Shown one piece after another: positions 3,221 through 38,303 of a stretch of DNA of 64,000 nucleotides. Position 1 is the first letter of the stretch. Each line of letters opens with the position of its first letter. The DNA comes from Candidatus Thorarchaeota archaeon (GTDB lineage Archaea > Asgardarchaeota > Thorarchaeia > Thorarchaeales > Thorarchaeaceae): assembly GCA_030669595.1 (NCBI GenBank), contig DAOVDG010000001.1, positions 6,047-70,046 of the forward strand. The letters are read 5' to 3'. The notes under the pieces are model-generated. The model was not told the origin of the DNA and did not search any database. It worked only from the letters and a program-made list of their open reading frames with translations. A program made the position numbers and the translations under genes.

Positions 3221-3248
3221 ATGAATTCCATTGCTATTAGATTCCGTT

Positions 3249-4654: not shown

Positions 4655-4760
4655 GTCTATGGTATCTCGAGAGATAGAATCTGGTATTCGAAGACCTCCA
4701 GTCGGAATTGTGCTATTCCCAAACTGAACAGGTCGTTATAAGCATTAAGAATGAAGGTTG

Positions 4761-5837
4761 TCAGTTGAAAGAGTACTTCGCATCGGAGAGAAGAGCAACA
4801 TTGCCCATCCTCACATTGGAAAGACCAGCATCCTTTGCTGTCTGAAGAGCAGCCTTAGCATGCTCTCTACTGGTGCGAGGCAGGTCTCGCATGACGTGGT
4901 GAGGGTGGAAGCCAAGAAGCGCAGTGGGAATTGTTGTGTCACTGTTCGCTATGAATTCGCACAGCTTACGCACTTCAGAAACCCCGACATATCCAGGAAC
5001 AAGAAGGATGCTAGCAACAAGGAGAACTCCTTCGCGTTCTCTCCCTTCAGAAGCCAATCTCTTGAAGTTCTTTAAGACAACCTTGTTGGAAATACCCGTA
5101 AGTGCAGTGTACAACTCCGGTGTGACAGCCTTTAGGTCGAACTTGATTGTGCCTCCGCTCTTCCTAACAACCTCTGTTATTCGTCCTAGCCACTTGCTTG
5201 AGATGTTACCATTTGTTTCATAGCACACTCGAATTCTTCTCTTTTCGTTGAGTATTCTTGAGGTTTCTATGGAGTGAGAGGGGTTACAGGCTGGGTCTCC
5301 TCCAAAATAGCAAACACAGGCTGTTCTCTCATCTGCAGAGGAGGCAAGCTCTTGAGGTGTCATCAACGGTGTACCCTTCACCATCATCTGTCGGAAGCTT
5401 GCGTTTTGGCAGAACAGGCAGTCAGAGTTGCAGGATCCGTAGAATACCGCGAGGTTGTTGAGCCGTTTCGAATCCACAATCAATGAGCTCCGCGTCACTG
5501 GACAGACCCAATCAGCAACACAATTGGTCGGAAGAGGATCGAAGTACCACGAAACAATGGCTTGTCCTGGGAACCGCTCCACAACTTCTCCATTCTCTAC
5601 GCCACGGAGATGACAGAAACCCAGCTTGCCCTCTTCGATTCTGCAGTGGTTCCCACAATCAGGGCAGACGATGTCCCCTGCGGTAGGGATTGCCTGGACG
5701 AGCTTATCGATTCTCCTGATTGTCTTGTGTGACTCTTGGGCTATTGTCGTTAGTGAACTGTCAGCCTCAAGGCACTCAGCACAGTATCCAATTGAATGTG
5801 ATACTAGTCTTGTATCGTGGTTTGGACAGAACATCAT
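4761..5837 (-). CDS. radical SAM protein (PflA/PflX-like activating-enzyme family) with Cys-rich N-terminal domain
   Basis: CNSDCLFCQN is a Cx3Cx2C radical SAM motif. The N-terminus carries CPNH...CAEC...CPDCGNHC. The gene sits between two divergent hdrCB pairs. Confidence 0.8.
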   Translation of the reverse strand: MMFCPNHDTRLVSHSIGYCAECLEADSSLTTIAQESHKTIRRIDKLVQAIPTAGDIVCPDCGNHCRIEEGKLGFCHLRGVENGEVVERFPGQAIVSWYFDPLPTNCVADWVCPVTRSSLIVDSKRLNNLAVFYGSCNSDCLFCQNASFRQMMVKGTPLMTPQELASSADERTACVCYFGGDPACNPSHSIETSRILNEKRRIRVCYETNGNISSKWLGRITEVVRKSGGTIKFDLKAVTPELYTALTGISNKVVLKNFKRLASEGREREGVLLVASILLVPGYVGVSEVRKLCEFIANSDTTIPTALLGFHPHHVMRDLPRTSREHAKAALQTAKDAGLSNVRMGNVALLSDAKYSFN

Positions 5838-5948
5838 TGCTTAGTATGGAGGTAACGTGAATGAGTCTTTGCCTTCATAGCCACGCTCGTTTGACAATGG
5901 ATTTAAGGCTATGATTCAAGCCTTCGCGCGCGCAGTCGGTGCGTTACA

Positions 5949-6554
5949 GTGACCACAACTGAAGAGAAACCTGCAATTGACATTGATGATGTTGATCTCG
6001 AGTTCATAGAGATAATCAAGAAGACCGGAGGTCCCAACATTCACAACTGCTACCAATGTGGAACGTGCAGCGGTAGCTGTCCCGCAGGCGCCCTTACGAA
6101 TTTCTTAGTGAGAAACACAATCAGAAAGGCCCTCTTGGGCCTCAAGGAGGAAGTCATCTCTTCACCAGATCTCTGGTACTGCACTACCTGCTACGCCTGC
6201 ACTGACAGGTGTCCTCAGGATGTCAAGCCAACTGATGTCATCAAGGCGATTCGCAATATCGCCGTTGCAGAGGGATACATGTTGGGGTCGCACCAGAAGG
6301 TGGCAGCCAAAGTAGTCGAAGCCGCACATGCCGTTCCCCTGGATAAGGAATCATGGCAGAATCTCAGGGTGAAAGTGGGTCTTGAACCAGTGCCGCCGAA
6401 TGCCAGTGGCAATCCATGGGCAGTCGATGAGATCAGGAAGATTACAAAGAAGAGCGGTTTTGAAAAGCTGATTGGTTACAGGGAGTTCGTGAAGGCTCAG
6501 AAAGAGAAGGCCAAGAAAAAGGCTGAAGAGAAGAAGGCCCAGAAAAAGGAGTGA
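5949..6554 (+). CDS. hdrC: heterodisulfide reductase subunit C (paralog 2) with Lys-rich C-terminal tail
   Basis: CYQCGTCSGSCP and CTTCYACTDRCP motifs. C-terminal KAQKEKAKKKAEEKKAQKKE tail. Confidence 0.9.
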   Translation: MTTTEEKPAIDIDDVDLEFIEIIKKTGGPNIHNCYQCGTCSGSCPAGALTNFLVRNTIRKALLGLKEEVISSPDLWYCTTCYACTDRCPQDVKPTDVIKAIRNIAVAEGYMLGSHQKVAAKVVEAAHAVPLDKESWQNLRVKVGLEPVPPNASGNPWAVDEIRKITKKSGFEKLIGYREFVKAQKEKAKKKAEEKKAQKKE

Positions 6555-6560
6555 TTCGGT

Positions 6561-7481
6561 TTGGCGAAGAAGCGACCTGCATTTTACCATTTCCTTGGCT
6601 GCGTCACACCCCATCGTTACCCCAGCGTTGAGCGGGCAACCAACCTAGTCTTCGAGGATCTTGACATGGATCTCCTCGACATGGTGGGGGCTACCTGTTG
6701 CCCCGCACCTGGAGTCTTTGGTTCATTTGACAGAGTCACCTGGGCTAGTATTGCGGCACGAAACCTCACGATAGCCGAACAGGGTGGTCATCCAATCACT
6801 ACTGGATGCAACGGCTGTTTCGCCAGTCTATTCGACTCAAACTACGAGCTGAAGCATGATGAAGAACTGAGAAAGGCAGTCAACGAGAATCTTGCCGAGA
6901 TTGGACGCGAGTTCAAAGGTAGCATTGAGGTCACCCACTACGTTGACGCGCTATTTGACACCGCAGGTCTTTCGAAGATCCGGAAACATGTCACTCATCC
7001 GTTGAAGGGCGTGCGGATGGCATTGCACCCGGGGTGCCACTGGCTCAGACCCAGCGCAATCAAGAAGAAAGACAATTCCGAGCGGCCTCACATATTTCGC
7101 GAATTGTGTGAAACTTCCGGTGCCACCTATGTTCCGTATAAGGATGAATTGATATGTTGCGGGGCTGGAGGTGCGGTGAGAACCGCGGACCTAGAGGTTT
7201 CCCTCCGTTTCACCAAGCAGAAATTCGAATCCATAATAGCTGCAGGGGGTGCTGATATGATAGTAACCCCATGCCCGTTCTGTCTACTACAGCTAGACCT
7301 TGGCCAAGTTGAGATTTCTAAACTCTTTGGGGTTGACTTCAACTTCGATATACTTCACGTTTCCGAACTTCTCGCTCTCGCATTCGGACACAGTCCCAAC
7401 GAATTCGGATTGGCAACGCATCTCCAATATCTGCAACGCAAGAGTCAGCCGAACTGGGGCCGGTTAGGTATTGAAACGTGA
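6561..7481 (+). CDS. hdrB: heterodisulfide reductase subunit B (paralog 2)
   Basis: CCG domains (CCPAPG...CNGCF and CCGAGGA...CPFCLLQ). Clearly paralogous to 3249..4145. Confidence 0.9.
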   Translation: MAKKRPAFYHFLGCVTPHRYPSVERATNLVFEDLDMDLLDMVGATCCPAPGVFGSFDRVTWASIAARNLTIAEQGGHPITTGCNGCFASLFDSNYELKHDEELRKAVNENLAEIGREFKGSIEVTHYVDALFDTAGLSKIRKHVTHPLKGVRMALHPGCHWLRPSAIKKKDNSERPHIFRELCETSGATYVPYKDELICCGAGGAVRTADLEVSLRFTKQKFESIIAAGGADMIVTPCPFCLLQLDLGQVEISKLFGVDFNFDILHVSELLALAFGHSPNEFGLATHLQYLQRKSQPNWGRLGIET

Positions 7482-7945: not shown

Positions 7946-8081
7946 TATCGAAACGTATGGCGTTACCTCCGGTTCCGAGTCTGATTATCTGGTGGCATGT
8001 CACAGAGAACTCATTGTCCGACTTCTCGATGTGCTCGCACCTTGTGTTTCAGAAGTATTCATTGAGAATACCCATGAGTTG

Positions 8082-10976
8082 TCAACTCTCACTATGAGTC
8101 TTCTCCGTGCCTGTCTCATGCTCCTTTTCTCCAGAATCTAATTCATGACTGGTGGATGCAAGTTCGCTCAGCGCCCTACGTGTTCTCTCTGCATCCTCTT
8201 TGGCTCGTTCCTTCTGTCTTGATTTCTCTAGACGATGTCCAATGGAGTACAAGATCGCAACCGAAACAACTAGAGCGAAGGCAAGTCCAATGAGCGGCAG
8301 ATTGTAGATGAGAAGCTCATCCAGAGGTAACCAGGGGTCTAGTGGATCATACCCATGCGCTACTTCCCATCCATCTCCAATCCCATCGCCATCACTATCG
8401 ACATTGCACGGGTCTGTACCTCGTTGATACTCATCGATGTTAGACAAGCCATCAGCATCACAATCGCCGTCTGCGTCGACGACTAGTGGGTTCAGACCGA
8501 ACTGTACTTCCCAACCATCCGCCATGCCATCACTGTCAGTGTCATTGTCACAAGGGTCGGTTTCGTGTTCATATTCTTGAAGATTGGGAAGACCATCAGA
8601 GTCTGCATCACCTTGAGCATCATCGTTCAGTGGGTCCAGCGCATTGGCCACTTCCCAGCCGTCCGGCATTCCGTCACTGTCAGTGTCGTTATCACGTGGG
8701 CTCGTGCCATGATGATACTCTTCTAGATTCGAGAGTCCGTCGGAGTCGGGGTCATCACCAGCATCATTCCCTGTAGCATTGAGCATGTATCGAATTTCCC
8801 AGCCGTCTGGCATGCCATCACTGTCAGTGTCGTTATTATATCGGTCAGTACCAAGCTGGATCTCTTCTAGGTCGAGCAATCCGTCGCCGTCACTGTCTTG
8901 GAAGGGTAGCTTGAACACAAAACAATCCGCAGTCCCACCATTGTACGAGCTGTCATATGCATTCACTGTGGGGAAATCAGAGGATTCTGTATAGCCCGTC
9001 ACATACACATTACCTATGGAATCCATAGCAATCGAAATCCCTCTATCCTCTGAAGACCCTCCAAAGTAGTTGGAGTAACGAAGTGAGTCACCAGTTGCGT
9101 TGATCCTGAAAACGAAGCAATCACCCTCTCCTCCGTTATACACACCACCAAGCGGACTCACTATAGGAAAATCAGAGGAGCCTGTATCGCCTGTTACGTA
9201 GGCGTTGCCATCGGAATCAATTGCGATGGATTGGGCGTAATCTGAGGATGACCCGCCGATGTAGGTGGAATAGAATAGTTCGCTGCCAGTGGCATTCAGC
9301 TTGAACACGAAACAATCACCCGCTCCATTGTACGAGTTGTCATATGCGCTCACTGTGGGGAAATCAGAGGACCTTGTGCTTCCTGTCACGTAGGCGCTAC
9401 CCTCAGAATCAACTGTGATAGATTCCCCGTCGTCCGAGGATGACCCGCCGATGTAGGTGGAATAAAATAGTCCATTGCCCGCAGCATTCAGCTTCAGCAA
9501 GAAACAGTCATCTTCTCCATTGTACGAGTTGTCATATGCGCTCACTGTGGGGAAATCAGAGGACCTTGTGCTTCCTGTCACGTAGGCGCTACCCTCAGAA
9601 TCAATCGCAATGGCATGAGCCCAATCCATTTCAGAACCTCCAACGAATGTGGAATATACCAGTCCGCTTCCGTTGGCATTAAGCTTGAACACAAAACAGT
9701 CTATGTTTCCATTATGTGAGCCGTCAAACGGATTTGCTGTCGGAAAGTCCAAGGACTTTGTGCATCCAGTCACGTAGACATTGCCTGTAGAGTCTGCCAT
9801 GACAGATTCTCCCGAATCCCGGCCGGACCCACCGATATAGGTGAAGTAGACCAGTTCGTTGCCGGTAGCATTCAGCTTGAACACGAAGCAGTCACCTCCT
9901 CCATTGTACGAGCTGTCATATGCGTTCATAGTGGCAAGGTCGGTGCAATGCGTGCATCCAGTGACGTAGGCGTTGCCCTCAGAATCAATCGCAATGGCAA
10001 GAGGCCAATCCCATCCAGAACCTCCGACGAATGTGGAGTATATCAGTCCGTTGCCAGTGGCATTGAGTTTGAACACAAAACAGTCATCTTCTCCATTGTA
10101 CGAGCTGTCATATGCGTTCACTGTGGGGAAGTCGGAGGATCTTGTAATTCCTGTAACATAGATGCTGCCTGTTGAGTCAACTGCTATGGAAGTCCCCACG
10201 TCAAAGCTAGAACCACCAACATATGTCGAGTAGAGAAACGGATTAACGACGAGTTCCTGTGATCTGTCGAAATCCCCCACCGCGAAACCGAAAGTGCTAG
10301 GTCCCTTCGATATGAACATCACTCCCACTTCCATTGAGTCCTGAAATGCCTTGACATTGCTGTCTAGGAACATTCCTCCTTCAATGCAATCCCCCACCAA
10401 TCTAGCTTCTATGTCAAGGACATCGTAGCCATCGCATCGGATTTCGATGGAATCGGGGTCTGCACTTGGCGCCATTCTGAACTCGCACCTTATGCCGTGT
10501 TTCTCTATGCGATAGACGAGGCTGATTCCTGGCCAAAGACTGTCATACACGACCTGAGTGAACCCGCGGATGCCCGTGAAAAGACCTCGCCCAGCCAGGA
10601 GGTAGTTCGTGTGATAGGCGGCTGGACCAGTGCCTCTCGGGGCTGCATCTCTCGCTCCCTCGAACGTCAATGTGACATTGTTCTCTAGACAGCTCATCCA
10701 CAGCAGAACCCGGTTCTCAGCAAAGCCAATAAACCCCCCTGGCATTCGACCATAGAACATCAGTTCGCTGCTGTCGATCTGTCCGACATTCTCATAGAAA
10801 TGGTGTTTCCATATCTCGGCCGCCATTTGAGCCATTGCCTTGTCATCACTTGGAATGCTTGCTGGAGCGCCGCTGTTCTGATTGGCAACCATAGTCACAG
10901 CCTGAGCACATGCCATCCATGCTAGACTGACTAGGAGCAAGAATCCGACGGTTCTCATCTGTTTCACTGATGACAC
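8082..10976 (-). CDS. large cell-surface protein with beta-propeller (SBBP-like) repeats, Asp-rich calcium-binding (thrombospondin type 3-like) repeats and C-terminal TM anchor
   Basis: Signal peptide MRTVGFLLLVSLAWMACAQA. About 8 repeats of the unit VTGxTxSSDFPTxNAYDxSYNGxxDCFVFKLNATGNxLxYSTYxGGS. Repeated DTDSDGMPDGWE and DSDGLSNLEEY units follow. The C-terminus has a TM helix LIGLAFALVVSVAILYSIG and a charged tail. Confidence 0.8.
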   Translation of the reverse strand: MSSVKQMRTVGFLLLVSLAWMACAQAVTMVANQNSGAPASIPSDDKAMAQMAAEIWKHHFYENVGQIDSSELMFYGRMPGGFIGFAENRVLLWMSCLENNVTLTFEGARDAAPRGTGPAAYHTNYLLAGRGLFTGIRGFTQVVYDSLWPGISLVYRIEKHGIRCEFRMAPSADPDSIEIRCDGYDVLDIEARLVGDCIEGGMFLDSNVKAFQDSMEVGVMFISKGPSTFGFAVGDFDRSQELVVNPFLYSTYVGGSSFDVGTSIAVDSTGSIYVTGITRSSDFPTVNAYDSSYNGEDDCFVFKLNATGNGLIYSTFVGGSGWDWPLAIAIDSEGNAYVTGCTHCTDLATMNAYDSSYNGGGDCFVFKLNATGNELVYFTYIGGSGRDSGESVMADSTGNVYVTGCTKSLDFPTANPFDGSHNGNIDCFVFKLNANGSGLVYSTFVGGSEMDWAHAIAIDSEGSAYVTGSTRSSDFPTVSAYDNSYNGEDDCFLLKLNAAGNGLFYSTYIGGSSSDDGESITVDSEGSAYVTGSTRSSDFPTVSAYDNSYNGAGDCFVFKLNATGSELFYSTYIGGSSSDYAQSIAIDSDGNAYVTGDTGSSDFPIVSPLGGVYNGGEGDCFVFRINATGDSLRYSNYFGGSSEDRGISIAMDSIGNVYVTGYTESSDFPTVNAYDSSYNGGTADCFVFKLPFQDSDGDGLLDLEEIQLGTDRYNNDTDSDGMPDGWEIRYMLNATGNDAGDDPDSDGLSNLEEYHHGTSPRDNDTDSDGMPDGWEVANALDPLNDDAQGDADSDGLPNLQEYEHETDPCDNDTDSDGMADGWEVQFGLNPLVVDADGDCDADGLSNIDEYQRGTDPCNVDSDGDGIGDGWEVAHGYDPLDPWLPLDELLIYNLPLIGLAFALVVSVAILYSIGHRLEKSRQKERAKEDAERTRRALSELASTSHELDSGEKEHETGTEKTHSES
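9040..10170 (-). repeat. intragenic tandem repeats (about 240 nt units) encoding the beta-propeller blades of the surface protein
   Basis: Near-identical nucleotide stretches recur (for example ttgaacacaaaacagtc...ccattgtacgagctgtcatatgcg). Off-frame ORFs 8779..8994 and 9973..10161 share a peptide for the same reason. Confidence 0.7.
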
Positions 10977-11303
10977 CTACTATGCGAGCTGACACAGCGC
11001 TATCTTCTGCTGGTTCTGTCGTTGTGGCAGATCGCATTTAATCTTTCCACTGAATTCCTTCAACGAATCCTGCTGACAGAGTGCTCGGCAATGACGCGAA
11101 TCATGGCTTTGTTCATTGTCCAGCATATCACTCCATTGAATACCGAAGGGAAACCGCAGCAAGTTCATCTGTCCTCCATGAATGACATTATGTTCAGGAG
11201 AGAACTGCTTGTGAAGCGCCTTGAGTACTGGAACAGAGCAAGGAAGAATAACATATTGCAGCAGCGCGTATCTTCAGGCCTCTACTCTCTGCAACTGTAC
11301 AGG

Positions 11304-12146
11304 CTAAAACAAGAGATTCTCTGAAGATTCACGATACATCCTCTCTGCATAGGTACGAATTGATTCACAAGAAGTCAGGAGCTCTTGATACATCATGCGA
11401 GAGTATCGTTGATCGTTCCTAGAGCTGAACGTAACGTTTCCACCGAACCCGAAATCTCTTCTGCATCTGTGTGCTGAGTTGAAGTAGATCTGAAGAACCC
11501 TACCATAGACTCCTCCGAACACTGCACTAAGGCCCTCTGCTATTGTAAGACTTTCTGCCTTACGATCGAGAAGCTTCTCAAGGAAAAGAAGTGATTTGAG
11601 TGAGTTCACCAAGACAACACATGCATACTCGAACCTGATGTTATCCTCAAGAAACAGAGATGCTTCGTGGACCTCTTTGAGAATCTCGAATATGACATTC
11701 CTTAGGTAATCAGGCTGAAGGGGATACTTGCCACTGAGGTCGGTACCTACGAGTACGATTCCCTTCTGAAGAGATGTACAGACTACAAGATGATTTCGCC
11801 CTCTCCAGGCCTTCGACAGCTCTTCTTCGGTCAAGACTTTGACATCGATTATAGGTCTCCATCCTTTTTTCTTGGATGCATAGGTCCTCAAGATGTCAGT
11901 CACGCTCTTCTTCTTGATCGAATCCGTAACGACAATCAGCAAATCGAAATCGCTCGAATCATCCGCATTGTTACTAGCCCACGAACCTGTCAGCAATCCT
12001 GATATGCACAGAGTTTCAAGTCCTTGTGAGAGAAGAGAGTCTATGTATTCGATGAAGTGCTGTGGCAAATTGAGATGGCCAATCTTGTGTCTCCAATTCT
12101 TACAGCCTTTATGATTCATCATGTTTCTCATGCCTGTGGACCTCAA
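11304..12146 (-). CDS. nucleotidyltransferase-domain protein (Pol-beta superfamily NTase fused to a C-terminal helical domain)
   Basis: GSWASNNADDSSDFDLLIVV matches the GS...DxD nucleotidyltransferase signature. A C-terminal domain of about 150 aa, likely helical, follows. Confidence 0.6.
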   Translation of the reverse strand: MRSTGMRNMMNHKGCKNWRHKIGHLNLPQHFIEYIDSLLSQGLETLCISGLLTGSWASNNADDSSDFDLLIVVTDSIKKKSVTDILRTYASKKKGWRPIIDVKVLTEEELSKAWRGRNHLVVCTSLQKGIVLVGTDLSGKYPLQPDYLRNVIFEILKEVHEASLFLEDNIRFEYACVVLVNSLKSLLFLEKLLDRKAESLTIAEGLSAVFGGVYGRVLQIYFNSAHRCRRDFGFGGNVTFSSRNDQRYSRMMYQELLTSCESIRTYAERMYRESSENLLF

Positions 12147-12235
12147 GTTTGCGGCTTATGGCAACGACATTGTGGTTGGGAACGATGGAGAATCTTGCTG
12201 AGTTCTCCATCGAACCTTCGTTATGGGGCTGACAA

Positions 12236-14044
12236 TCATGAATGGATGTGGATGGTCAGGTCATAACCGCCCCCATAGTTAGTACCACATTGCATTGTTA
12301 GCCGCAGGTAATACATACCTGGCGATGCTTGGAACTGTCGGTATTCAGTTCTCTCATATGCCCTAAACGAGAATAACCAAGTGGCACCTTTGTAGACTGA
12401 CAGTTTCATATGCAGTTCATCCTTGGGTGTCAACCAGATCTCCACATTGCAGCTGGCACCGACCTCGAAGCTGAACCAGTCTTTATCCGCCCAAACTTCT
12501 TGATATCCCCAAATACCTTCATCGTAGACGTTGAAATCTGCATCCGGACCAAAACCGAGGTGAGTTGCGATTGACTGTGAATCTCCCGCATCATCCTCTT
12601 CCAGAAAGATATCTGCCCAAGAAAGCGTGTCTTGCTTGTAGATTCTGGCCCCGTCTATGGTGGGTTGGCAAGAGCTCTTGCTTATGGCGTATTCGTAGCA
12701 ACTCCAGAAGTTGAATCCGTTTGCCGCCTTATCGAAGAAACAGTCACAGAAGTCCCGCGTGGGTTCTTTTAGCGCCCTACCATCCCAACCAATCGCGCAT
12801 TGAGCTCCTCGCTGAAGAAAACCCTCAACGATGCTTGTGTGGACTGGGTACCATATTCCTGTGTCCTTATCTTCCCAATCGTCCGCCGCAGACCAACATG
12901 TGGAGATGAATGCCAACTTCATGGAGCTGAAGACACCCGGTTCAGGAGGTAGGTCCACAGGCAAGATTGGATCCGAACATCCGTACTCACCGATTCCTGT
13001 ATACAAGAAGGTCTTTCCAAGTACCTCTCTCCAGAATCCGCTACCATGACCGAGATGGAAGACAACCTCGCCGTACGGGAACAACTGAAGCTCTTGTGAC
13101 CTAGCAAGATCCTCATGGTACCATGCATAGGCACCAGAGGGAAAGCTGGTGGCAGTTTCGAATCTTCTGTGTACTCGGTGGGCACACTGATAGGTGATTT
13201 CAATGCCAGGGTCGCTCACGAAGGTGAACTTGCTGCCTGGGGGTTGTTCAAGAGAGCTATCAACGAAGAGAATCTCGGATGTTGTTGCACTGATCCAGTA
13301 CTCCTCTGTTCCGGAATCTAGTACCCATGCAAGGTATGTTTTACCTTCTACGTGGACTATCTCCAACTGAGTGCTGAAAACTTTCCCATTTGCTCTACCC
13401 TGAACAGTGTCGATTGCTTCTTTTACGCTTACTTCGGGTTTAGTGTCAATCACGACTTTATGCCAGTGACTTGCGTAGCTGTAGACCTGCTTCCCATTCG
13501 GATCCATTGAGATCCGAATAAAATCGCCTCTCACAGGGATATCATTTATTGTGTGCTTGAAGGAGAGAGTCCAACCATCAGAGGTTTTTGTCATGTCAAC
13601 CGAGTTGTCTTGTTGAGGAAGGATTACAAGACCCTTATACTCGATATGGCTGAGAAAACCGAATGCAGTGGCCCATGCATTCGAAAGAGCTACTGACTCA
13701 GGAGGATAGGATTCTACATCACAAACCTTGGTTGAGTCGAGAAAGTACCGAAGCCTTAGAGATGATGGGTCCAGTTCAACTTGAATTAGCTGGCGGCTCG
13801 TGGTTTTCCACCTCACAGCCCAGAGTTCCTCTTGCCAACCAGCATCATAGACGAGTGAGATACCCTCTAAACGAGCGTTGGCTGGCGGGTCGGCAAGGTC
13901 TTCCGCTATTGCCCTTATCATTCCTACTTCTTCTTGATTCAATTGGCCAGAGAACAGCATACCCTGGTCCATTGAAGACAACACCTGCATTGTCAAGAAA
14001 GAAACCATGACAAACACCAGAACCAGTTTCCTTGTTGCCTTCAT
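12236..14044 (-). CDS. secreted clan-CD (caspase/gingipain-like) cysteine peptidase with C-terminal PPC (pre-peptidase) domain
   Basis: Signal peptide MKATRKLVLVFVMVSFLTMQVLSS. FHLGHGSG is followed about 40 aa later by AFISTCWSAA, which is the His-Gly then Ala-Cys dyad spacing of clan CD. The C-terminal DKDWFSFEV...YYLRL resembles the PPC DxDWYxF motif. The start was moved to the internal Met at 14044. Confidence 0.5.
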   Translation of the reverse strand: MKATRKLVLVFVMVSFLTMQVLSSMDQGMLFSGQLNQEEVGMIRAIAEDLADPPANARLEGISLVYDAGWQEELWAVRWKTTSRQLIQVELDPSSLRLRYFLDSTKVCDVESYPPESVALSNAWATAFGFLSHIEYKGLVILPQQDNSVDMTKTSDGWTLSFKHTINDIPVRGDFIRISMDPNGKQVYSYASHWHKVVIDTKPEVSVKEAIDTVQGRANGKVFSTQLEIVHVEGKTYLAWVLDSGTEEYWISATTSEILFVDSSLEQPPGSKFTFVSDPGIEITYQCAHRVHRRFETATSFPSGAYAWYHEDLARSQELQLFPYGEVVFHLGHGSGFWREVLGKTFLYTGIGEYGCSDPILPVDLPPEPGVFSSMKLAFISTCWSAADDWEDKDTGIWYPVHTSIVEGFLQRGAQCAIGWDGRALKEPTRDFCDCFFDKAANGFNFWSCYEYAISKSSCQPTIDGARIYKQDTLSWADIFLEEDDAGDSQSIATHLGFGPDADFNVYDEGIWGYQEVWADKDWFSFEVGASCNVEIWLTPKDELHMKLSVYKGATWLFSFRAYERTEYRQFQASPGMYYLRLTMQCGTNYGGGYDLTIHIHS

Positions 14045-30849: not shown

Positions 30850-33800
30850 CTACTCCCTCAGCATCTCCTCTATCTGGTCGTAGAAGCTCTTCTCACGCCA
30901 CCATCGGAGGTCACGTGCCCCCGTTGGGCAGATGGAACAGCATGCTCCACATCCCTCACACGCAAGCTCGTTGGTGACGCTCTTTTTCACGCCCGGCGCT
31001 ACTTCAACCATTGAAACAGCGTCGTAGGGACAAATCTCCGAATAATGGCAGAGGTCACATCCAACACAGAGATCTTCGTCCACATCTGCTGCTAAAAGTT
31101 CGATATTCACAGTACCGAGATTGAGCGGAGCACAGGCTGCGCTGGCTGCACCGCGTGCTTGGTTGATTGAGTCTGATACATTCTTTGCGTAGGTTGCACC
31201 CAAGAAGATGCCTGGGACAGTGGTTTCTACTGGTTTGAACTTCATATGAACCTCAAGCAGGAATCCATCTTGTCCTCGGTTAATTCCCAATGCCTTGGTG
31301 AGTTCGTTGATGTCGTGGGGCGCTTCCAAGCCCAGTGCGAGCACAACCATGTTGGATCGTATCTTGAAGGTTTCCTGGGAAAGAGTATCATATACTGTTA
31401 CAATGGCCTCATCAGCATCAGGAGATTTCTCAACAGTGACCGGTTTCTCTCTTATCCAACGCAGATAGATGACGCCCTTCTGACGGTTCTCCCTCCACAT
31501 CTCCTCCATATTGTTGGCGAATGGGCGGATGTGTTCCTTATAGGCGGAGAACACTCTGATGTCCGGGAACATCTCCTTCAGTTCGTGCTGCATAGCTATG
31601 ACAGCGGAACAACACACCCTTGAACAGTATCTATTTCCCTCTCCTGGGCTCTGTCTTGAACCGACGCAGTGGATAAATACTGGATTTTTTGGTGGCTTCT
31701 TGAGTTCTCCATTTCTTAGCATGCGCTCAAGCTGGAGTGTTGTAATGACTCCTGGGATTTCCTCCCAACCATACTCTCCCTTCTTTGGATCATAAGTGTC
31801 CGTGCCCGTTGTGATGACCATTGAGCCTATCGTATGAACTTCCTGCTCTCCGGTTTTCATGTTCTGAATCGTTATCTCATAGTTCCCGTAGGTGCTTTCT
31901 CTTTCCAATGGTTTCGAGTTGAGCAATACTTTGATTCGCTTCTCCTTCTCAACACGTGCTACAAGGTCGTCCACGATTTCCTGAGCGCTCTCCATCTTGG
32001 GGAACAATTTGTAGAGGTCATTTAACCTTCCGCCGAGTCGGTCCTCTTTCTCAACAAGGACGACATCAAAGCCCTTCCGAGCAATGTCAAGCGCAGCGGT
32101 CATCCCTGAAACCCCTCCGCCAACAACCATTGCGACTCGAGTCACATCGACTGACTTGACAGGCACAATCTCGTTGTTGATGGCCTTGGCGACGCCGGAG
32201 CGAATCATATCCTGTGCTTTCTCCTGACGAACATCGGGAGGATCTTTCGCGTTGACCAGCGCAATGAGTTCTCTAAGTCCTATAGGCCCCACTAGATAGT
32301 AACCTGATATGCCAGCAGCCTCTAGGGCGCGTCTGAAAGTGTCTTCGTGTTGCAGCGGTGAGCATGAACCAACGACCACACGGTTCAGCTTGTGCTCCTT
32401 GATGGCCTCTGTGATGAACTCCTGGCCTGGGTCGCTGCACATGAAAATGTAATCTGTGCTGTAGACCACATTCGGAATATGGCTTGCCCACTGAGCTAGG
32501 CCAGGACAATCTATTACATTGCCAATGATTCCTCCACAATGGCAAATGAACACGCCAACTCTCGGCTCTTCTCCGACCTCCAGTGGCGGAACTGCTTCAG
32601 GTACGGGGGGGTGTGGGAGCGGTAATATTGACTGCGCAGCCATAGCCGCACCTTTACCCTCATTGACCGTGTCTGTGCCGTCCTTGGGTCCGTGGATGCA
32701 ACCAGCCATGTATATGCCATCGCGGGTGGTTTCGAGAGCAGCTGAGTTTGGGTTCCTTTCCTTCACCCAACCCGTCTCATCAAGCTCGATGCCCAAGACC
32801 TTTGCAAGTTCTTCGCTACCCTCTGCAGGTCTGAAGCTTGAGTTGAGAACGACCATGTTCACTTTAATCTCTTGAATCTCGCCAGTTTCGGTATCTTCCA
32901 GCTTCACCATGAGGTCGCGAGTGTCAGGGTCTTCATTGATCTCCGCAACCCTACCTCGGATGAAGTCAATGTCCATGTTGTGCTGGGAGTCCCAGAGGAA
33001 CTCCTCCAGCATTTTCCCGCAAGTGCGCATGTCCATGTAGGTGTAGATGATTTTGCAGTGCTCTTTGGGATAGTGCATGCGCGTGACCTGGGCCAGCTTC
33101 AGTCCAAAAGAACAGCAGACCCTGTTGCAGTGATGACTATACCCCTGAATGTTCTCCCGAACGTCTCTTGACCCAACGCAGTTCACGAACATGATGGCCT
33201 CAGGTTCCCTGCCGTCAGATGGACGAACCATATGTGCATCAGTCGGTCCTGTTGGATGTGTTTGACGATCGTACTCTAGGGATGTCACGACATTTGGAAA
33301 CACACCGTAGCCGTATTCCGCATAGTCGGTCGGCTGATATTCCTGAAAGCCTGTGGCGTTTATGATGGAACCCACGTGCAGGTCGTATTCCTTGTCTTTA
33401 TCGTCGTACATGATGCAGTCTTGCGGACACACTGCAGCACATGTCCCACAGCCAATGCAGGAATCCCTGTCTATGCAGGCCAGCAGAGGGATTTGCTGCG
33501 GGAAGTTCATGTATATCGCCTTGCGCAGTGATAGTCCCATGTCGTACTCATTCGGGACCTCCACCGGACAGACCGCGATGCAAAGGCCGCAGCCAGTGCA
33601 CTTGTTCTCGTCTACGTAACGGGCTTTCTTATGAATCGTCAGCGTGAAGTCGCCCGCCTTGCCCTTGACTTTCTTCACCTCTGAGAGCGAGTGTATCGTT
33701 ATATTCAGGTGCTTGCCCACGAATGAGGTGAGTGGAGTCATAACACAGGCGGAGCACTCTAGAGCGGGAAATATTTTATATATTGCAACATAAATTCCCC

Positions 33801-33951
33801 CAATTGACACAGTTCTCTCTATGAGATGTGCATGATGACCGCCGTCAGCGAGGGCGAGTGCGGCGCTAATCCCTGCCATTCCCGCACCGATTATAGCAAC
33901 GTCAGTGGGCTTGGGCTTTGCCACTGACTTCTTTGTTGCCTTGCTGACCAT
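30850..33951 (-). CDS. hdrA: giant fusion protein: HdrA-like FAD/FeS module, then a canonical HdrA with C-terminal 2x[4Fe-4S] ferredoxin domain (no MvhD)
   Basis: VAIIGAGMAGISAALALA and AMVVGGGVSGMTAALDIA FAD sites. Inserted ferredoxin (CTGCGLCIAVCP...CIGCGTCAAVCP). HdrA N-domain motif RVGVFICHCGGIIGNVID in mid-protein. C-terminal CVGCDLCHYSEICP...CEGCGACCSICP. Confidence 0.9.
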   Translation of the reverse strand: MVSKATKKSVAKPKPTDVAIIGAGMAGISAALALADGGHHAHLIERTVSIGGIYVAIYKIFPALECSACVMTPLTSFVGKHLNITIHSLSEVKKVKGKAGDFTLTIHKKARYVDENKCTGCGLCIAVCPVEVPNEYDMGLSLRKAIYMNFPQQIPLLACIDRDSCIGCGTCAAVCPQDCIMYDDKDKEYDLHVGSIINATGFQEYQPTDYAEYGYGVFPNVVTSLEYDRQTHPTGPTDAHMVRPSDGREPEAIMFVNCVGSRDVRENIQGYSHHCNRVCCSFGLKLAQVTRMHYPKEHCKIIYTYMDMRTCGKMLEEFLWDSQHNMDIDFIRGRVAEINEDPDTRDLMVKLEDTETGEIQEIKVNMVVLNSSFRPAEGSEELAKVLGIELDETGWVKERNPNSAALETTRDGIYMAGCIHGPKDGTDTVNEGKGAAMAAQSILPLPHPPVPEAVPPLEVGEEPRVGVFICHCGGIIGNVIDCPGLAQWASHIPNVVYSTDYIFMCSDPGQEFITEAIKEHKLNRVVVGSCSPLQHEDTFRRALEAAGISGYYLVGPIGLRELIALVNAKDPPDVRQEKAQDMIRSGVAKAINNEIVPVKSVDVTRVAMVVGGGVSGMTAALDIARKGFDVVLVEKEDRLGGRLNDLYKLFPKMESAQEIVDDLVARVEKEKRIKVLLNSKPLERESTYGNYEITIQNMKTGEQEVHTIGSMVITTGTDTYDPKKGEYGWEEIPGVITTLQLERMLRNGELKKPPKNPVFIHCVGSRQSPGEGNRYCSRVCCSAVIAMQHELKEMFPDIRVFSAYKEHIRPFANNMEEMWRENRQKGVIYLRWIREKPVTVEKSPDADEAIVTVYDTLSQETFKIRSNMVVLALGLEAPHDINELTKALGINRGQDGFLLEVHMKFKPVETTVPGIFLGATYAKNVSDSINQARGAASAACAPLNLGTVNIELLAADVDEDLCVGCDLCHYSEICPYDAVSMVEVAPGVKKSVTNELACEGCGACCSICPTGARDLRWWREKSFYDQIEEMLRE

Positions 33952-34060
33952 GTTCTGTGGACTCCGGGCTGTGTTACAACGACCGCGGGAAATAGCGGGG
34001 TGATATAATTGTTCTGTCGGAGGACATTACCAATAAGGGGCTGCCACTGCCGCTACACAG

Positions 34061-35215
34061 CTAGTTGAGTGAGCCTTTCTCAGGTTTCAGCAGCGAATCG
34101 AGTTTCCAGGCCAGAAGCAATACATAGCTCAGTGGCAAGACTCCTAGGGATGCGACAGCTAGCGCTGGAAGGGGGTCCACTTGCGGGACGTATACGTCCC
34201 TACTAACTTCAACAGAAAATTGAATCTCAACGTCATTCTCGACTCTAGCTAGTGATAGAGTGTACGCTAACGTGTCGTTTACAGGAAAGCTCAACCACCA
34301 CTGCCCGTCGATGGTGGCATTTGCCAAGACCATCTGTTCCTCCTGAAGACCGTCGGAGATGCTGAGTAAAACCCCGGTTCCACCATGAGTCATTGAATGA
34401 ACCCGCATGGCGTAGCTCCCCGTGTCACTTGAATACGGAATTGTAAGATTGAAAGAGGCTTCAGAATGGGACTCGTTCAAAAAAGCCGAGTGTAGTTGGT
34501 CTGATACTATTTCTGTGTGTTTGATCAATCTATAGTCTTGTGTGTAGTATCCTCTCAGAAACGGCGCAAACAGGGATGCGCAAAGCAGAATTAGAAGGAC
34601 AACCGCTAATGATCCTTGGCGTCGCGGCCATCTCACTTGGGCTCGCATCTCATCCCGAGATTGCCTCCTGCACTTCCTTTCAATGAGAATTAGTTTATTC
34701 GCTGCATAGACACTCAATCCAAAGGATAGCAGAAGAACTCCCATATTCGATGCAAACAGAGACTCCCTCCATACAATCATCGGGGGTATTACGTAGCATT
34801 CTCTGATTTCTAACGAAACAGCAACATCTTGGCCCTGCCAAGTGACATTTATCCACCAGACGTTTATCCACCATTCAGAAACTGATGGCCTATCAATGAC
34901 GACTGGCATGCCAACAATTTCAGACACATTGCGTAGGTGCAAATAGGTCTCCGACAGACTGAGTGCCAAGATTGAAACATAGGTTTCATTTGTCCTCAGC
35001 TCGAAGAGCTCAACTTTCGTTACGTATGAAGTAACATTGTGTTGAATAGTCGGACTTTCCTCGGACAGTGTAGTGCTGTATTTGTATGATTGAAACCCCT
35101 CTGTCGAATCATAAGAGTAGGAAGGCCATAATGGGATCGAAATAGTGCCCAGTACGCCGAGGAGTAGCAAGACCGACATTATGACTACTCTGGGTTTAGA
35201 ACAGTCAATTGACAT
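34061..35215 (-). CDS. hypothetical membrane/surface protein
   Basis: N-terminal signal/TM, several NxS/T sequons, internal TM segments and a C-terminal hydrophobic segment (VLPLSYVLLLAW). No catalytic motifs. Confidence 0.45.
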   Translation of the reverse strand: MSIDCSKPRVVIMSVLLLLGVLGTISIPLWPSYSYDSTEGFQSYKYSTTLSEESPTIQHNVTSYVTKVELFELRTNETYVSILALSLSETYLHLRNVSEIVGMPVVIDRPSVSEWWINVWWINVTWQGQDVAVSLEIRECYVIPPMIVWRESLFASNMGVLLLSFGLSVYAANKLILIERKCRRQSRDEMRAQVRWPRRQGSLAVVLLILLCASLFAPFLRGYYTQDYRLIKHTEIVSDQLHSAFLNESHSEASFNLTIPYSSDTGSYAMRVHSMTHGGTGVLLSISDGLQEEQMVLANATIDGQWWLSFPVNDTLAYTLSLARVENDVEIQFSVEVSRDVYVPQVDPLPALAVASLGVLPLSYVLLLAWKLDSLLKPEKGSLN

Positions 35216-35295
35216 CTAGTACTCCTCCTAAACATAAGACCAAGGCATGTACTATGGGACACTTTGCGAAAAAGCTTCCCATGGTCTTCAACCAG

Positions 35296-35425
35296 CACCG
35301 ATTATGGCAACTTCAGTGGGCTTGGACTTCGCTATTAACTTCCTGGATGCCTTGCTGATCATCTTCTGTCGGCTCCGGGCTGTGGCTATAACGACGGCGG
35401 GAACCAGCGGGGCGATACAATCTTT
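35296..35425 (-). repeat. duplicated copy of the leader plus first 24 codons of the giant hdrA at 33951 (truncated, ends in a stop)
   Basis: About 80 percent nucleotide identity to 33885..34015. It encodes MISKASRKLIAKSKPTEVAIIGAG*, compared with MVSKATKKSVAKPKPTDVAIIGAGMAG in the intact gene. A shared 55-nt upstream leader precedes the ATG in both copies. Confidence 0.6.
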
Positions 35426-35471
35426 CTGGATATGGTCAGATTTTCTTGGCTAAGGAACCTACTGACACTAG

Positions 35472-36830
35472 TCACTGACGGTCGGCAGCGTGGAGGTGCA
35501 TCCCAACTCGGACAACGTAGACTGCTGCAGTAACGCCCGCATGCAGCATGATGGTGAAAAGTGCCCAGAGCGGAATGCCCAGAAGCACGAATACCAATAT
35601 GTGGATGTTGTAGAGATTACGTCGCCCCGCCACTCGTCGGAACGTTCGTTCAAATGGCCCGTAGTTGTCAAGGCTCTCTCCCATAGTTCTACTGAACAAA
35701 TCGTAGACCATCCGGTAGAAGGCCATCAGAGTGATCGATCCGGCAGCCAGTAGGATGGGCAACGTTCCCCAGAAGGCGCTGAGGTAAGTTGCCAGTGCTA
35801 TCAGCCAGGCGAATTCGAAGAGTAGATCAAAGGCGTGTTCTAGTTTGCCTAGCCGGGTGGCCTGCCGCCGGATTCGGGCCAGCTTCCCGTCAACACCATC
35901 CACTATCCCCACGACGAAAGTGAGCAGCGCTGCCGGCAGCAGCTGGCCAAAGAGAAAGAACGCAGCCGCTAGGTAGGCCACTACGTTGCTTGCCAGCGTG
36001 ACCATGTTGGGGGTAACCCGTGTATCCGATAGATGGTAAGCCAGCGCAGTTTCAAGTGGTCGATTCAAATAGTGGGCTATGAAGTCCGAAGCGCCCCGCC
36101 CCTTCTGGGTGTACTTCGCCAAGATTCGCTTCGCCCGCTTCACATCCTCCTCAGTATCAACATCGACCCAGTAGTATCCGCTCACATCCAGGATCTGCGC
36201 CTCCCCTTCTTCAGCTGCCAGTCCTACGCACTCCACAAACTCTGTCTTTCCTGCTTCCGCCGCTGCCATTGCATGCTTGAAAATCTTAGGGGCGCACTTG
36301 AAGAACCCTGTGTCCACACCGTTCCACACCGAAAGACCCTTGCCAGCATCGATAATCTTACTGTCGCGTTCCAGCACGAGAGTGTCATCAGGAGAGTACT
36401 GAACCCGATCCACCGCCAAGGTAAGAGCCCCGGTTAGATCCACTCGTTGTAGTTTCCGCACAATCTCTGGGTCGAAGATATGATCGCCCATGCAGAGGAT
36501 GAAGTCATGATCACAGAAGCCGCGGGCCGCCAAGAAGGAATGAAGGTTCCCCTGAAACCAGTGTTCGGCGCGGATATACTGCACATTCAGCCCTGCATAA
36601 TTCGTGCCAATCTGCTGTTGGACCCGATCCCCTTCACAGCCCACCACCACATGAACTTCCACGATTCCCGCATCCCGCAAGGAATACAGCACTCTTTCCA
36701 ACAGTGCAAGCCCAGCCACCGGATGCAGCTGTTTCAGTATTTCTTCGCTCATCCGGCTGCCCTGTCCAGCTGCTAAGACTAGAGCGCACACTGTCTTGCG
36801 TTGTCCCAAAACTCCGGAGTCTGTTTTCAT
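35472..36830 (-). CDS. bifunctional CTP:inositol-1-phosphate cytidylyltransferase / di-myo-inositol-phosphate-phosphate synthase (IPCT/DIPPS)
   Basis: N-terminal nucleotidyltransferase (LAAGQGSRM, CMGDHIF, GVDTGFF, WVDVDTEEDVKRAKRIL). C-terminal CDP-alcohol phosphatidyltransferase membrane domain (IVDGVDGKLAR). From memory, these align motif-for-motif with Archaeoglobus-type IPCT/DIPPS; no database search was run. Confidence 0.75.
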   Translation of the reverse strand: MKTDSGVLGQRKTVCALVLAAGQGSRMSEEILKQLHPVAGLALLERVLYSLRDAGIVEVHVVVGCEGDRVQQQIGTNYAGLNVQYIRAEHWFQGNLHSFLAARGFCDHDFILCMGDHIFDPEIVRKLQRVDLTGALTLAVDRVQYSPDDTLVLERDSKIIDAGKGLSVWNGVDTGFFKCAPKIFKHAMAAAEAGKTEFVECVGLAAEEGEAQILDVSGYYWVDVDTEEDVKRAKRILAKYTQKGRGASDFIAHYLNRPLETALAYHLSDTRVTPNMVTLASNVVAYLAAAFFLFGQLLPAALLTFVVGIVDGVDGKLARIRRQATRLGKLEHAFDLLFEFAWLIALATYLSAFWGTLPILLAAGSITLMAFYRMVYDLFSRTMGESLDNYGPFERTFRRVAGRRNLYNIHILVFVLLGIPLWALFTIMLHAGVTAAVYVVRVGMHLHAADRQ

Positions 36831-37262
36831 ACGCCCATCTTCTTACACTACCTTTCTTTCCAGATTCTCCTGGCTCGCTCGGTGCAAAGGCCTGACATTC
36901 ATTGTCCTGCAAGGGGCCAAGGATTAGCAACAGCTGCATAGCACTTGAACAATCTTGGAAATCCAATCCAAATCTCGACACAGAAATGGCCACGCCAACT
37001 CATCTACCGGAGTTTGCATACTCCCTAGATTCGCCGAGACGTGAACGGTCGATTATCTCATCATCAAACACTAGATTATGCTCCACCAGATAGTTTCGTG
37101 TGATAAAAAGGTTCTTCCACACGATTTCGTTACTCACAGGATTCCTCCTGTTGTTCTCATCAGGTTTGGATTCCCAGGTTAGGAACAATTCAAATAACCA
37201 GTCCACATCCCTATCCTTATTATATGCTCCATGGCGCAACCCGCGTCATCATCTAACATGGG

Positions 37263-38303
37263 GTGTCTGGACAGATGCGCTACGTAAAGCTCCCAAAGGA
37301 AAAGGTCTACGAGTTCCTCGAGCAATTGAAGTCCATGGGGACTCTCTATGGGCCTAAGAAAATCTCAGAGAAGTTCTACGACTTCAGAGAGATTGGCGAT
37401 GTCAAAGAGGTGGAATTCGAGTACAACCGGACGATAACTCCCCCAAGAAAATTCTTCTTCCCCGAACGAGAAACCGTCTTTACGTTTGACACGGTCAATG
37501 TTGAGATTCATGAAACGCTGCCTACAGGAGACCCCATCATCATCTTCGGCGTGCATGCCTGCGACATTGTGGGTCTGCGTATCATGGACTCGCGTTTCAT
37601 TGACGATCAACCAGACCCCTACTATCAGACTCGAAGAGAGAATGGAATAATCATTGGACTCTCCTGCCTTCCTGACGAGTATTGCTTCTGCAGCGTGCGC
37701 CGCACTGATTTCGTTGATGCGGGCTTCGACCTCTTCCTTCATCTCCTCCCTGACGGCTATTTGGTTCGTGTGGGAACAGTGACCGGACACAAGCTAATCG
37801 AGAACTCGCCGGAATACTTCGAGGAGATTTCAAGCGAAGACAAGGATAACTTCGCCAAATTCGAGGCCAAACGGAGGTCCATGTTCACGGTTCAAGGCAA
37901 CTGGGATGATATGAGATATCGTCTTGAACTGCACCTCGACCATCCCATGTACATGCGCGAGAGCGACAAGTGCCTTGGCTGTGGCAATTGCACACTTACG
38001 TGCCCGACATGCCGTTGTTATGAAGTCAAAGACCTGCCAACTCTTGATGGGGCTGGGGGCGAGCGTGTTAGGTTTTGGGATTCCTGCCAATTCAGATCGC
38101 ACGGGCTTGTGGCGGGCGGTCACAACTTTAGACCCACAAAGAAGGACCGTTTCCTCAATCGCTACCAGTGCAAGAATGCCTATTGCGAAACCACCACAAC
38201 CGCGTACTGCGTGGGTTGCGGTAGATGTACGTACTTCTGCCCAGCAGACATCCAGTTCAAGGAGAACCTGCTAGAAGTCTACGGATTTGGAGGTGGAGCT
38301 TGA
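37263..38303 (+). CDS. hydB: cytoplasmic NiFe hydrogenase (group 3b, sulfhydrogenase-type) beta subunit, FeS protein (AsrA-like)
   Basis: Cys clusters [16 protein letters not shown] and [12 protein letters not shown]. It is the first gene of a beta-gamma-delta-alpha operon. Confidence 0.8.

Follow-up and report, generated by a model that had tools for sequence, protein, structure and literature searches.

A second copy of the hdrA promoter and gene start ahead of a membrane-protein gene in Thorarchaeota: a probable leftover of recombination

Why does the beginning of a central redox gene occur twice at one locus, once in front of the gene itself and once in front of a different gene? This question is raised by a 64-kb stretch of DNA from a Candidatus Thorarchaeota archaeon (assembly GCA_030669595.1, contig DAOVDG010000001.1), which is called the window in the following. 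It contains hdrA, encoding an HdrA-like protein of 1033 amino acids (aa), and further upstream, ahead of a gene for a membrane protein, a second version of the region in which hdrA begins. We suggest that this upstream segment duplicates the hdrA promoter, 5′ untranslated region (UTR) and codons 1–24 and is a leftover, probably of a recombination that put an extra gene before hdrA. The same arrangement, its single-insert counterparts and the empty site are all found in sister genomes, and it is this comparison that carries the argument.

The repeat and the hdrA promoter element

Both the repeat and hdrA are read on the minus strand of the window. The copy that leads into hdrA is called proximal and the one in front of the membrane gene distal (Table 1). 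The two form a direct repeat of 137 nt with 81.8% identity (BLASTN, E 4e-32). MAFFT aligns them over ~137 nt with one single-base indel, and a repeat search of the window returns an ungapped core of 93 nt with 84% identity at a spacing of 1411 nt. Homology begins ~65–72 nt 5′ of the hdrA ATG (33951) and stops exactly after codon 24 (GGTGC[G/T]GG). The repeated unit holds a promoter of the BRE/TATA type (BRE, transcription factor B recognition element), a UTR of ~30 nt with a GGAG ribosome site, and hdrA codons 1–24. The distal copy starts 44 nt past the stop of the preceding gene, cdp. The proximal copy supplies hdrA with an intact TATA, GGAG, ATG and the whole 1033-aa open reading frame (ORF).

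An earlier sequence-only reading of this DNA had described a segment about 80 percent identical to the hdrA start (35296..35425), which encodes a 24-aa peptide and then stops, with the membrane-protein gene lying between copy and original. All of this is borne out. Pairwise alignment gives 82% over 137 nt; the distal copy contains the 24-codon ORF MISKASRKLIAKSKPTEVAIIGAG closed by TGA; and a 384-aa ORF with four hydrophobic segments separates the two copies. Insignificance or low complexity, which that reading had named as grounds for dismissing the match, do not apply, since the repeat is not low-complexity sequence, the E value is as given above, and the two-copy structure with diverged copies recurs in independent assemblies. 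L-numbers denote here related Thorarchaeota loci: both copies are present in L001/L075/L076 and in L078, and also in L073, where the second one reaches the contig end, while L080 and L083 show the upstream copy ahead of the membrane gene. Statistically there is no ambiguity, and the duplication is real.

The content of the repeated unit was compared across 60+ hdrA upstream regions anchored at the ATG. Conserved in them are a 17-nt element, GACAGAAAGRTTATATC, which ends 50 nt before the ATG, the GGAG ~11 nt before the ATG, and the coding start; the ~38 nt between the element and GGAG vary freely across more distant hdrA loci. TTATATC is exact in 63 of 67 distinct upstream regions, and CAGAAAGRTTATATC is found in 50 of the 67. 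In 930 kb of Thorarchaeota loci the 17-mer, with two mismatches or fewer, turns up at hdrA promoters and in one captured copy (L004), and nowhere else. The conserved part is a 17-nt promoter element of the BRE/TATA type, specific to hdrA across Thorarchaeota. Archaeal promoters combine a purine-rich BRE with an A/T-rich TATA box ~25 nt upstream of the start site, and by analogy with this architecture the repeat unit would correspond to a core promoter followed by a ~30-nt 5′ UTR with a Shine-Dalgarno site. The element is nearly invariant among Thorarchaeota whose HdrA proteins are 70–80% identical (34002-34018 of the window and equivalents in L001–L070). It may combine BRE/TATA with the binding site of an hdrA-specific regulator. 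Within the 64-kb window the promoter element and the UTR core are found only at the two known places, and thus there is no evidence of a regulon inside these 64 kb; the search for the leader upstream of other redox genes, which the sequence-only reading had proposed for the whole genome, returned nothing else over the window.

Alleles in sister genomes and the junctions of the duplication

Relatives were collected by a scan with HdrA, taking one genome per species, which gave 71 loci, almost all from Thorarchaeota. Look-ups of membrane-protein homologues added more, and a metagenome scan with the membrane protein gave three loci. Exact-sequence look-ups of the membrane protein and HdrA of the window gave no match, and homologues were used instead. 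Alleles were compared with the closest genomes, which are 88–93% identical in the flanking genes, and the window was turned so that hdrA lies on the plus strand.

Three alleles are distinguished. In allele (i), carried by the window, L001 (= L075/L076) and L078, the order is sulfhydrogenase gene, cdp, distal copy, membrane gene, proximal copy with hdrA. In allele (ii), carried by L002 and L003, the sulfhydrogenase gene and cdp are followed by a single leader with hdrA, and neither the membrane gene nor a second copy is present; this is the empty site. In allele (iii), carried by L004/L077, L054, L074/L082 and L079, the sulfhydrogenase gene is followed by ~32 nt of unrelated sequence, the membrane gene and the leader with hdrA, without cdp and without the distal copy. 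Partial views of allele (i) are given by L073, by L083, which begins within the distal copy, and by L080, where cdp, the distal copy and the membrane gene are followed by the 147 nt remaining on the contig, without leader or hdrA.

What L002 and L003 lack is the membrane gene along with 76 nt on its 5′ side and 44 nt on its 3′ side, and one repeat copy is missing together with it; the intervals 2964-6709 and 7985-12825 of WIN′ map onto one and the same copy in L002 (BLASTN). The segment missing from the allele (iii) genomes L004, L054, L074, L079 and L082 contains cdp, its upstream region and the distal copy. In the outgroups L005, L023, L024 and L025 the sulfhydrogenase gene lies 182–260 nt from hdrA and neither inserted gene is present. 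Therefore both genes are additions to an originally short divergent intergenic region.

The sequence-only reading had offered two alternatives, the first being that the membrane gene inserted at the 5′ end of hdrA and its target was duplicated. The empty site of L002 and L003 with the same flanks, and the outgroups with neither gene, agree with it. The same reading had spoken of a copy relocated upstream. A duplicate it is, but the direction has to be reversed: where the membrane gene is absent, the single leader occupies the very site of the upstream copy (110 nt past the stop of the preceding gene), so what moved was hdrA together with the second copy, and the move was downstream. L002 and L003 show no distal-specific mutation at all and have a perfect TATA, so they more likely represent the pre-insertion state than recent pop-outs. 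The ~32 unrelated nt of allele (iii) are found only in allele (iii) genomes; therefore allele (iii) is not a plain deletion derivative of allele (i).

The two edges of the repeat are of different nature. On the left, the distal copy adjoins the sequence 3′ of cdp, just like the single leader in L002 and L003, and the proximal copy adjoins the sequence 3′ of the membrane gene, which is also the case in allele (iii). The left edge is therefore simply the meeting point of these two flanks with the common promoter. The right side is a true non-homologous junction, where hdrA codons 22–24 are joined to TTGAAGA upstream of the membrane gene. Here the distal copy reads ...ATAATCGGTGC(G/T)GG followed directly by TTGAAGACC, and hdrA reads ...ATAATCGGTGCGGG followed by AATGGCAGG (also given as ...CGGTGCGGG followed by AATGG). 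In allele (iii) the same place reads ...GATAAGTGCGGG followed by TTGAAGACC (L004/L077; also given as ...AAGTGCGGG followed by TTGAAGACC). Seven nucleotides, GTGCGGG, are common to hdrA codons 22–24 and the sequence upstream of the membrane gene in L004/L077, and this match is weaker in L054, L074 and L079. The right edge of the distal copy coincides with the edge of the segment missing from the genomes that have the membrane gene only.

Table 1. Features of the hdrA locus, in positions of the window
Feature	Position	Strand	Basis
Proximal (functional) copy: hdrA promoter, 5′ UTR, codons 1–24	33881..34016	-	BLASTN and MAFFT against the distal copy; runs into the intact 1033-aa HdrA-like ORF
Distal copy: decaying duplicate of hdrA promoter, 5′ UTR, codons 1–24	35292..35428	-	81.8% over 137 nt; left flank collinear with the L002/L003 single leader
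Relic 24-codon ORF MISKASRKLIAKSKPTEVAIIGAG + TGA	35288..35362	-	ATG 35362; TGA 35288-35290; GGAG ahead at 35373-35376
hdrA core promoter element GACAGAACAATTATATC (BRE/TATA type)	34002..34018	-	Ends 50 nt before ATG; promoter role inferred from archaeal architecture
Mutated promoter element of the distal copy CAGAAAGATTGTATC (TATA A->G)	35414..35428	-	Sequence comparison
Right-hand junction: hdrA codons 22–24 (GGTGCTGG) joined to TTGAAGA upstream of the membrane gene	35285..35299	-	Homology ends between 35292 and 35291
Segment missing from L002, L003 (together with one repeat copy)	34017..35291	-	BLASTN collinearity
Segment missing from L004, L054, L074, L079, L082	~35301..37141	-	Ends exactly at the distal copy end
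hdrA-like gene, 1033 aa: HdrA core, second flavin/NAD(P) module, ferredoxin domains	30850..33951	-	PDB, NCBIfam and domain matches
Membrane-protein gene, 384 aa: transmembrane segment, beta-rich domain, transmembrane segment, twice over	34061..35215	-	Four hydrophobic segments; AlphaFold 2 secondary structure, low confidence
IPCT/DIPPS-like cdp gene, 452 aa: bifunctional cytidylyltransferase / CDP-alcohol phosphotransferase	35472..36830	-	Pfam NTP_transf_3 and CDP-OH_P_transf
Sulfhydrogenase beta-like gene, divergent, first of a four-gene sulfhydrogenase-like operon	37263..38303	+	Adjoins hdrA in outgroups (gap 182–260 nt)

Decay and origin of the distal copy

Six distal copies were compared (window, L001, L073, L078, L080 and a partial one in L083), five of which include the promoter and 5′ end. 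The TATA octamer is changed in all five, where the reference ATTATATC is replaced by ATTGTATC once and by ATTGTGTC and ATTATGTC twice each. Common derived states, namely the A-to-G changes in TATA, GTTTGGAGAACAC in the UTR and Pro13 to Ser, indicate a single origin of the distal copies before the split of these species. The distal copies have accumulated 46 coding differences from the inferred ancestor; 34 of these lie in amino-acid-changed codons, compared with 15 of 40 in functional copies. Residues invariant in HdrA (KPTDVAIIGAG) are altered (D17E/G, V18G, A19P, G22D, G24S), and those of the flavin adenine dinucleotide motif are changed in the L073 and L078 copies. Pairwise identity of the relic ORF is 73–85%, against 88–92% at the third codon positions of cdp and the membrane gene (window, L001, L078). 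In L083 the TGA has become CGA, and the relic ORF is longer by 12 codons. The distal copy evolves neutrally, changing at least as fast as neutral sites, and by this pattern of substitution it is probably without function.

There are also signs of exchange between the copies. The two copies of the window share CACAGCCCGGAG, where other loci have GTTTGGAG in the distal or GTCTGGAG in the proximal one. The distal copy of L080 (3007-3166) is chimeric, with a distal-type UTR and a coding part that is protein-identical to functional hdrA. This patchy identity in the window and in L080 indicates gene conversion. The 147 nt after the membrane gene of L080 (4375-4521) have neither leader nor hdrA, so the locus was rearranged again there.

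We infer the order of events and the recombination mechanism from the alleles and junctions described above. In the ancestral state the sulfhydrogenase operon and hdrA would be divergent neighbours. The space between them would then gain the IPCT/DIPPS-like gene and the membrane-protein gene, with alleles that have one gene, the other gene or both coexisting. In the formation of the allele with both genes, one end of the exchange would be homologous and the other an illegitimate join at the 7-nt GTGCGGG within hdrA codons 22–24. The hdrA-side DNA would carry its own intact promoter, leader and start codon, and hdrA would stay functional for this reason, while its old 5′ end is stranded before the membrane gene. 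The stranded copy would be kept neither as an hdrA-type promoter nor as a peptide; it would decay, sometimes swapping patches with the functional copy by gene conversion.

The exchange itself can be drawn in more than one way. In model A type (ii) DNA would enter a recipient of type (iii), with its homologous anchor in the sulfhydrogenase region, and donor hdrA codons 22–24 would be joined by microhomology to the recipient GTGCGGG upstream of the membrane gene. In this way cdp would enter, with the donor hdrA promoter and 24 codons as a passenger. Such a course would correspond to homology-facilitated illegitimate recombination (HFIR), a process known from bacteria. Among the window, L001, L002, L003 and L078 the nucleotide identity of cdp is 94–96%, compared with 87–94% in the flanking sulfhydrogenase, membrane and hdrA genes. 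The higher similarity of cdp is compatible with its more recent spread by recombination, and model A would account for it. In model B the first arrival of the membrane gene would itself have produced the duplication, the exchange being anchored in hdrA and ending illegitimately at codon 24, and allele (iii) would afterwards lose most of the distal copy by internal deletion. The place of the ~40 nt of allele (iii) that precede TTGAAGACC, which is where the ancestral promoter sat relative to the sulfhydrogenase gene, bears on this model. A Campbell-type single crossover of a circle carrying the membrane gene and the leader would yield the same product, and repeat recombination would regenerate allele (ii).

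Several observations weigh against a nonfunctional leftover formed at a microhomology. These ~40 nt of allele (iii), made up of the 32 unrelated nt and GTGCGGG, resemble the ends of the repeat (GACAGGAAATATC(G)CCCC ... ATAAGTGCGGG), although the resemblance is marginal and post hoc, with a shuffle p of 0.01–0.09 against the first 45 nt and no significance against the whole unit. They may be an internally deleted distal copy; if so, GTGCGGG would be what was left of that copy and no microhomology, and the duplication would date from the first arrival of the membrane gene. The frame is open through codon 24 in 6 of 6 distal copies, and the ATG and GGAG are kept in 5 of 5 with a 5′ end. A simulation of four copies, treated as independent though they are not, gives a joint chance of an open frame of ~0.035. 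Such retention hints weakly, if at all, at selection for an upstream ORF. The most that the distal copy would contribute ahead of the membrane gene is weak transcription and a short upstream ORF. Pairwise distances of the flanks give a star-like picture of the strains, in which the alleles are not monophyletic and there is no allele-specific clustering. Finally, HFIR is shown, in the account cited at the end of this text, for naturally transformable bacteria and not for archaea, while here it is deduced from sequence alone.

The most serious rival is a functional promoter capture, in which the distal copy is kept to drive the membrane gene in co-regulation with hdrA, with the 24-codon ORF as a regulatory upstream ORF. 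The copy does stand directly upstream of the membrane gene, with 74 nt from the relic stop to the membrane ATG, and the retained frame, ATG and GGAG are what such a role would keep. An older leader copy in L004/L077, termed L′, has a perfect TATA and is fused in frame to another membrane ORF, which points to promoter capture as something that does occur here, and distant homologues of the membrane protein adjoin hdrA in other lineages. However, all distal copies that contain the TATA octamer have mutations in it, whereas real hdrA promoters hardly vary there, and evolution proceeds at or above the neutral rate. Neither the peptide nor the ORF length is conserved as in a regulatory leader peptide: most of the changes are non-synonymous, and L083 has lost the stop. 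Moreover, five sister genomes keep the membrane gene intact without any distal copy. We therefore consider promoter capture unlikely. A structured regulatory RNA, that is, a riboswitch-like leader copied to control a second gene, is far harder to maintain. The sequence-only reading had named the conserved leader of about 55 nt as a candidate for such a role or for a transcription-factor site, and ~50 nt of similar 5′ UTR are indeed present in both copies. But the leaders have no Rfam match at E<=1 and their predicted folding equals that of shuffled sequence in both copies (z +0.37, +0.19, +0.30 and -0.18), which leaves the riboswitch-like reading without support. The UTR between TATA and GGAG is not conserved in distant hdrA loci, and the similarity runs on unbroken into the 24 codons, as it would in a plain duplication. 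We regard this explanation as highly improbable.

The direct repeats around an insert, the single-copy empty site in L002 and L003 and the recurrence of insertions at the same promoter in other lineages bring to mind site-specific integration, with the two copies as the attachment sites attL and attR. The 1.27-kb insert has, however, the membrane gene only. Searches for tRNA and mobile-element genes found no integrase, excisionase, transposase or phage-like gene in the insert or within ~10 kb of the locus, and no tRNA. The 137-nt repeat is far longer than a recombinase core, three independent duplications at hdrA promoters end differently (+72, ~+20 and -23), and the allele with the membrane gene alone has no second attachment-like copy. 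Such integration is very unlikely here. Transposon insertion leaves a target duplication of 2–15 bp and involves terminal inverted repeats and a transposase. A transposon with target-site duplication was rejected for this locus, where the duplication is of 137 nt, the insert ends have no inverted-repeat pair and there is no transposase within ~10 kb. As to a chimeric or mis-joined contig, all sequences are metagenome-assembled, but at least five assemblies, made independently and from different samples, show this architecture together with orthologous mutations specific to the distal copy, and the copies are not collapsed or duplicated reads because they are 18% diverged. The chance of an assembly artefact is negligible. 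A rearrangement leftover remains our preferred reading of the upstream copy.

Further rearrangements, neighbouring genes and known systems

Other copies of the hdrA promoter are found in the relatives. In L004/L077 the leader copy L′, 73% identical, comes after the membrane gene and is followed by the canonical leader with hdrA. It is fused, after ~7 hdrA-derived codons (MNSEATN versus MVSKATK), to a 172-aa membrane ORF (L004 5279-5862, L077 4683-5269) and is an apparent functional capture of the hdrA promoter and start. L083 (1-1810) has an L′-type promoter after the membrane gene and then a beta-helix/NosD-like gene, with hdrA not within 3.5 kb. An independent duplication, of the promoter and UTR only, is found in L059 (HdrA identity of 75%); its extra copy, whose TATA is destroyed (GGGAAATGTC), precedes the real leader by 1.1 kb. 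The L059 copies (4802-4857 and 5890-5965, 80% identity) flank a 239-aa gene on the opposite strand (4958-5677), which has a domain between two transmembrane segments. Neither L004 ORFx nor this 239-aa protein has detectable similarity to the membrane protein. In L053 (3836-3870) a truncated promoter start, ...GGTCATGACAGAAGGA, is followed by unrelated DNA after a distant membrane-gene homologue, and L035 (~5900-5945) has a partial promoter copy, TGACAGAATCTGGTCATGACAGAAAG; both are further signs of rearrangements clustering at the hdrA promoter.

Distant homologues of the membrane protein (23–27% identity, by profile) are found directly upstream of hdrA or within a few kb of it in other Thorarchaeota lineages (L056 4707-5807, L035 4682-5794, L044 4619-5779, L053 1514-3835 as a tandem pair, L033 391-1503). 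This suggests an old and recurrent linkage of a fast-evolving membrane-protein family with hdrA. Because the duplications end at different points, they speak for homology-driven events, centred on the only stretch that all lineages conserve, rather than for a site-specific recombinase. One could go further and see in the hdrA promoter and 5′ end a preferred landing pad, where small membrane-protein genes are repeatedly captured by homology-anchored recombination, each with a fresh promoter copy. We consider this generalization quite doubtful. If it were true, new membrane proteins would be wired into the hdrA regulon, as in L004, and unneeded wiring would leave decaying copies.

As for the genes themselves, the 1033-aa ORF matches the HdrA structures PDB 9sfi, 5odc and 8rvu at E 1e-173 to 1e-179 (5odc, E 2e-175). 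NCBIfam HdrA2 matches it at E 8e-265 with a score under the curated cut-off, and for this reason the product is labelled HdrA-like. The 384-aa membrane protein has no match in Pfam, NCBIfam or PHROG; it has 21 close homologues with at least 71% identity, one of them from Candidatus Thorarchaeota. Its AlphaFold model is too poor for a fold search (predicted local distance difference test score, pLDDT, of 57). At this low confidence the protein is predicted to be two-fold, with a transmembrane helix, an 8-strand beta domain and a transmembrane helix, repeated, and the similarity between the halves is weak (BLASTP E 0.067). The gene contains a 15-nt tandem duplication (34844-34873 of the window, minus strand; TGGTGGATAAACGTC TGGTGGATAAATGTC), giving WWINVWWINV, which explains the 384 aa as compared with 379 aa in most homologues. 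The cdp product has a full-length match to the IPCT/DIPPS structure PDB 4mnd (E 2e-38), with NCBIfam NF041135 under its cut-off. On the 3′ side of hdrA lie genes for isocitrate dehydrogenase, ATP-citrate lyase, aconitase and a DUF2096 protein, and the neighbours of the locus are housekeeping genes. An antisense ORF at 35247-35453 (plus strand) was dismissed, as its start is not conserved in relatives. In L077 only three short ORFs (97, 44 and 63 aa) were called at the site of the 342-aa sulfhydrogenase beta-like gene (2072-3300); the gene may be disrupted there, or the gene calls poor.

How does this locus compare with known systems? The 5′-end-targeting integrative elements of the SXT/prfC and dusA type resemble it in three ways: a housekeeping gene of redox metabolism or translation is entered within its 5′ coding end, insert-side DNA restores the promoter and first codons, and the displaced 5′ fragment stays upstream. 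An element-encoded integrase is the defining feature of these elements. Here, in contrast, the insert is one 1.15-kb gene and brings no integrase, excisionase or transfer genes, the length of the repeat far exceeds that of an attachment-site core, and the replacement 5′ end is homologous and not an unrelated sequence. Campbell-type integration likewise leaves an insert between direct repeats of a shared segment and is reversible, which would give the allele of L002 and L003; the gene conversion seen here is another point of likeness. It differs in that no circle or replicon is known for this locus and in that the right end of the repeat is non-homologous, so an illegitimate step would still be needed to make the circle. 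As in truncated pseudogene fragments and promoter duplications from segmental rearrangement, a neutrally evolving gene-start fragment lies beside the intact copy, but unlike in ordinary cases the pre- and post-event alleles are all preserved in sister species.

HFIR with a microhomology of 3–10 bp is a documented route for the insertion of foreign DNA in bacteria (de Vries & Wackernagel 2002, as presented in PMC6382021). Relative to that presentation, the locus would have long homology on one side and, in GTGCGGG, a possible 7-nt GC-rich microhomology, within the stated range, on the other, unless these nucleotides are a remnant of an older duplication; a foreign gene stands beside a conserved anchor, and possible donor and recipient alleles both exist. 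The event at hdrA differs from the process as described there in having made a 137-nt duplication of the anchor-side gene start.

To judge from the sequences, insertion by HFIR or of the Campbell type, with later gene conversion and decay like that of a pseudogene, fits best among the known processes. The duplicate is genuine but, as rearrangement scars go, rather ordinary; it is a new case of a known kind and not a riboswitch, and none of the findings overturns current ideas. For annotators it means that the 24-codon ORF is a gene fragment and not a leader peptide, and the nearly invariant, hdrA-specific 17-nt promoter element offers a handle for studying the regulation of a central redox enzyme. 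The locus is also a clean natural example of recombination-driven gene flow among species of Thorarchaeota, which are uncultivated Asgard archaea: with the empty site, both single-insert alleles and the recombinant preserved, the breakpoints of a gene gain can be read to the nucleotide, and its mechanism can be argued from them.

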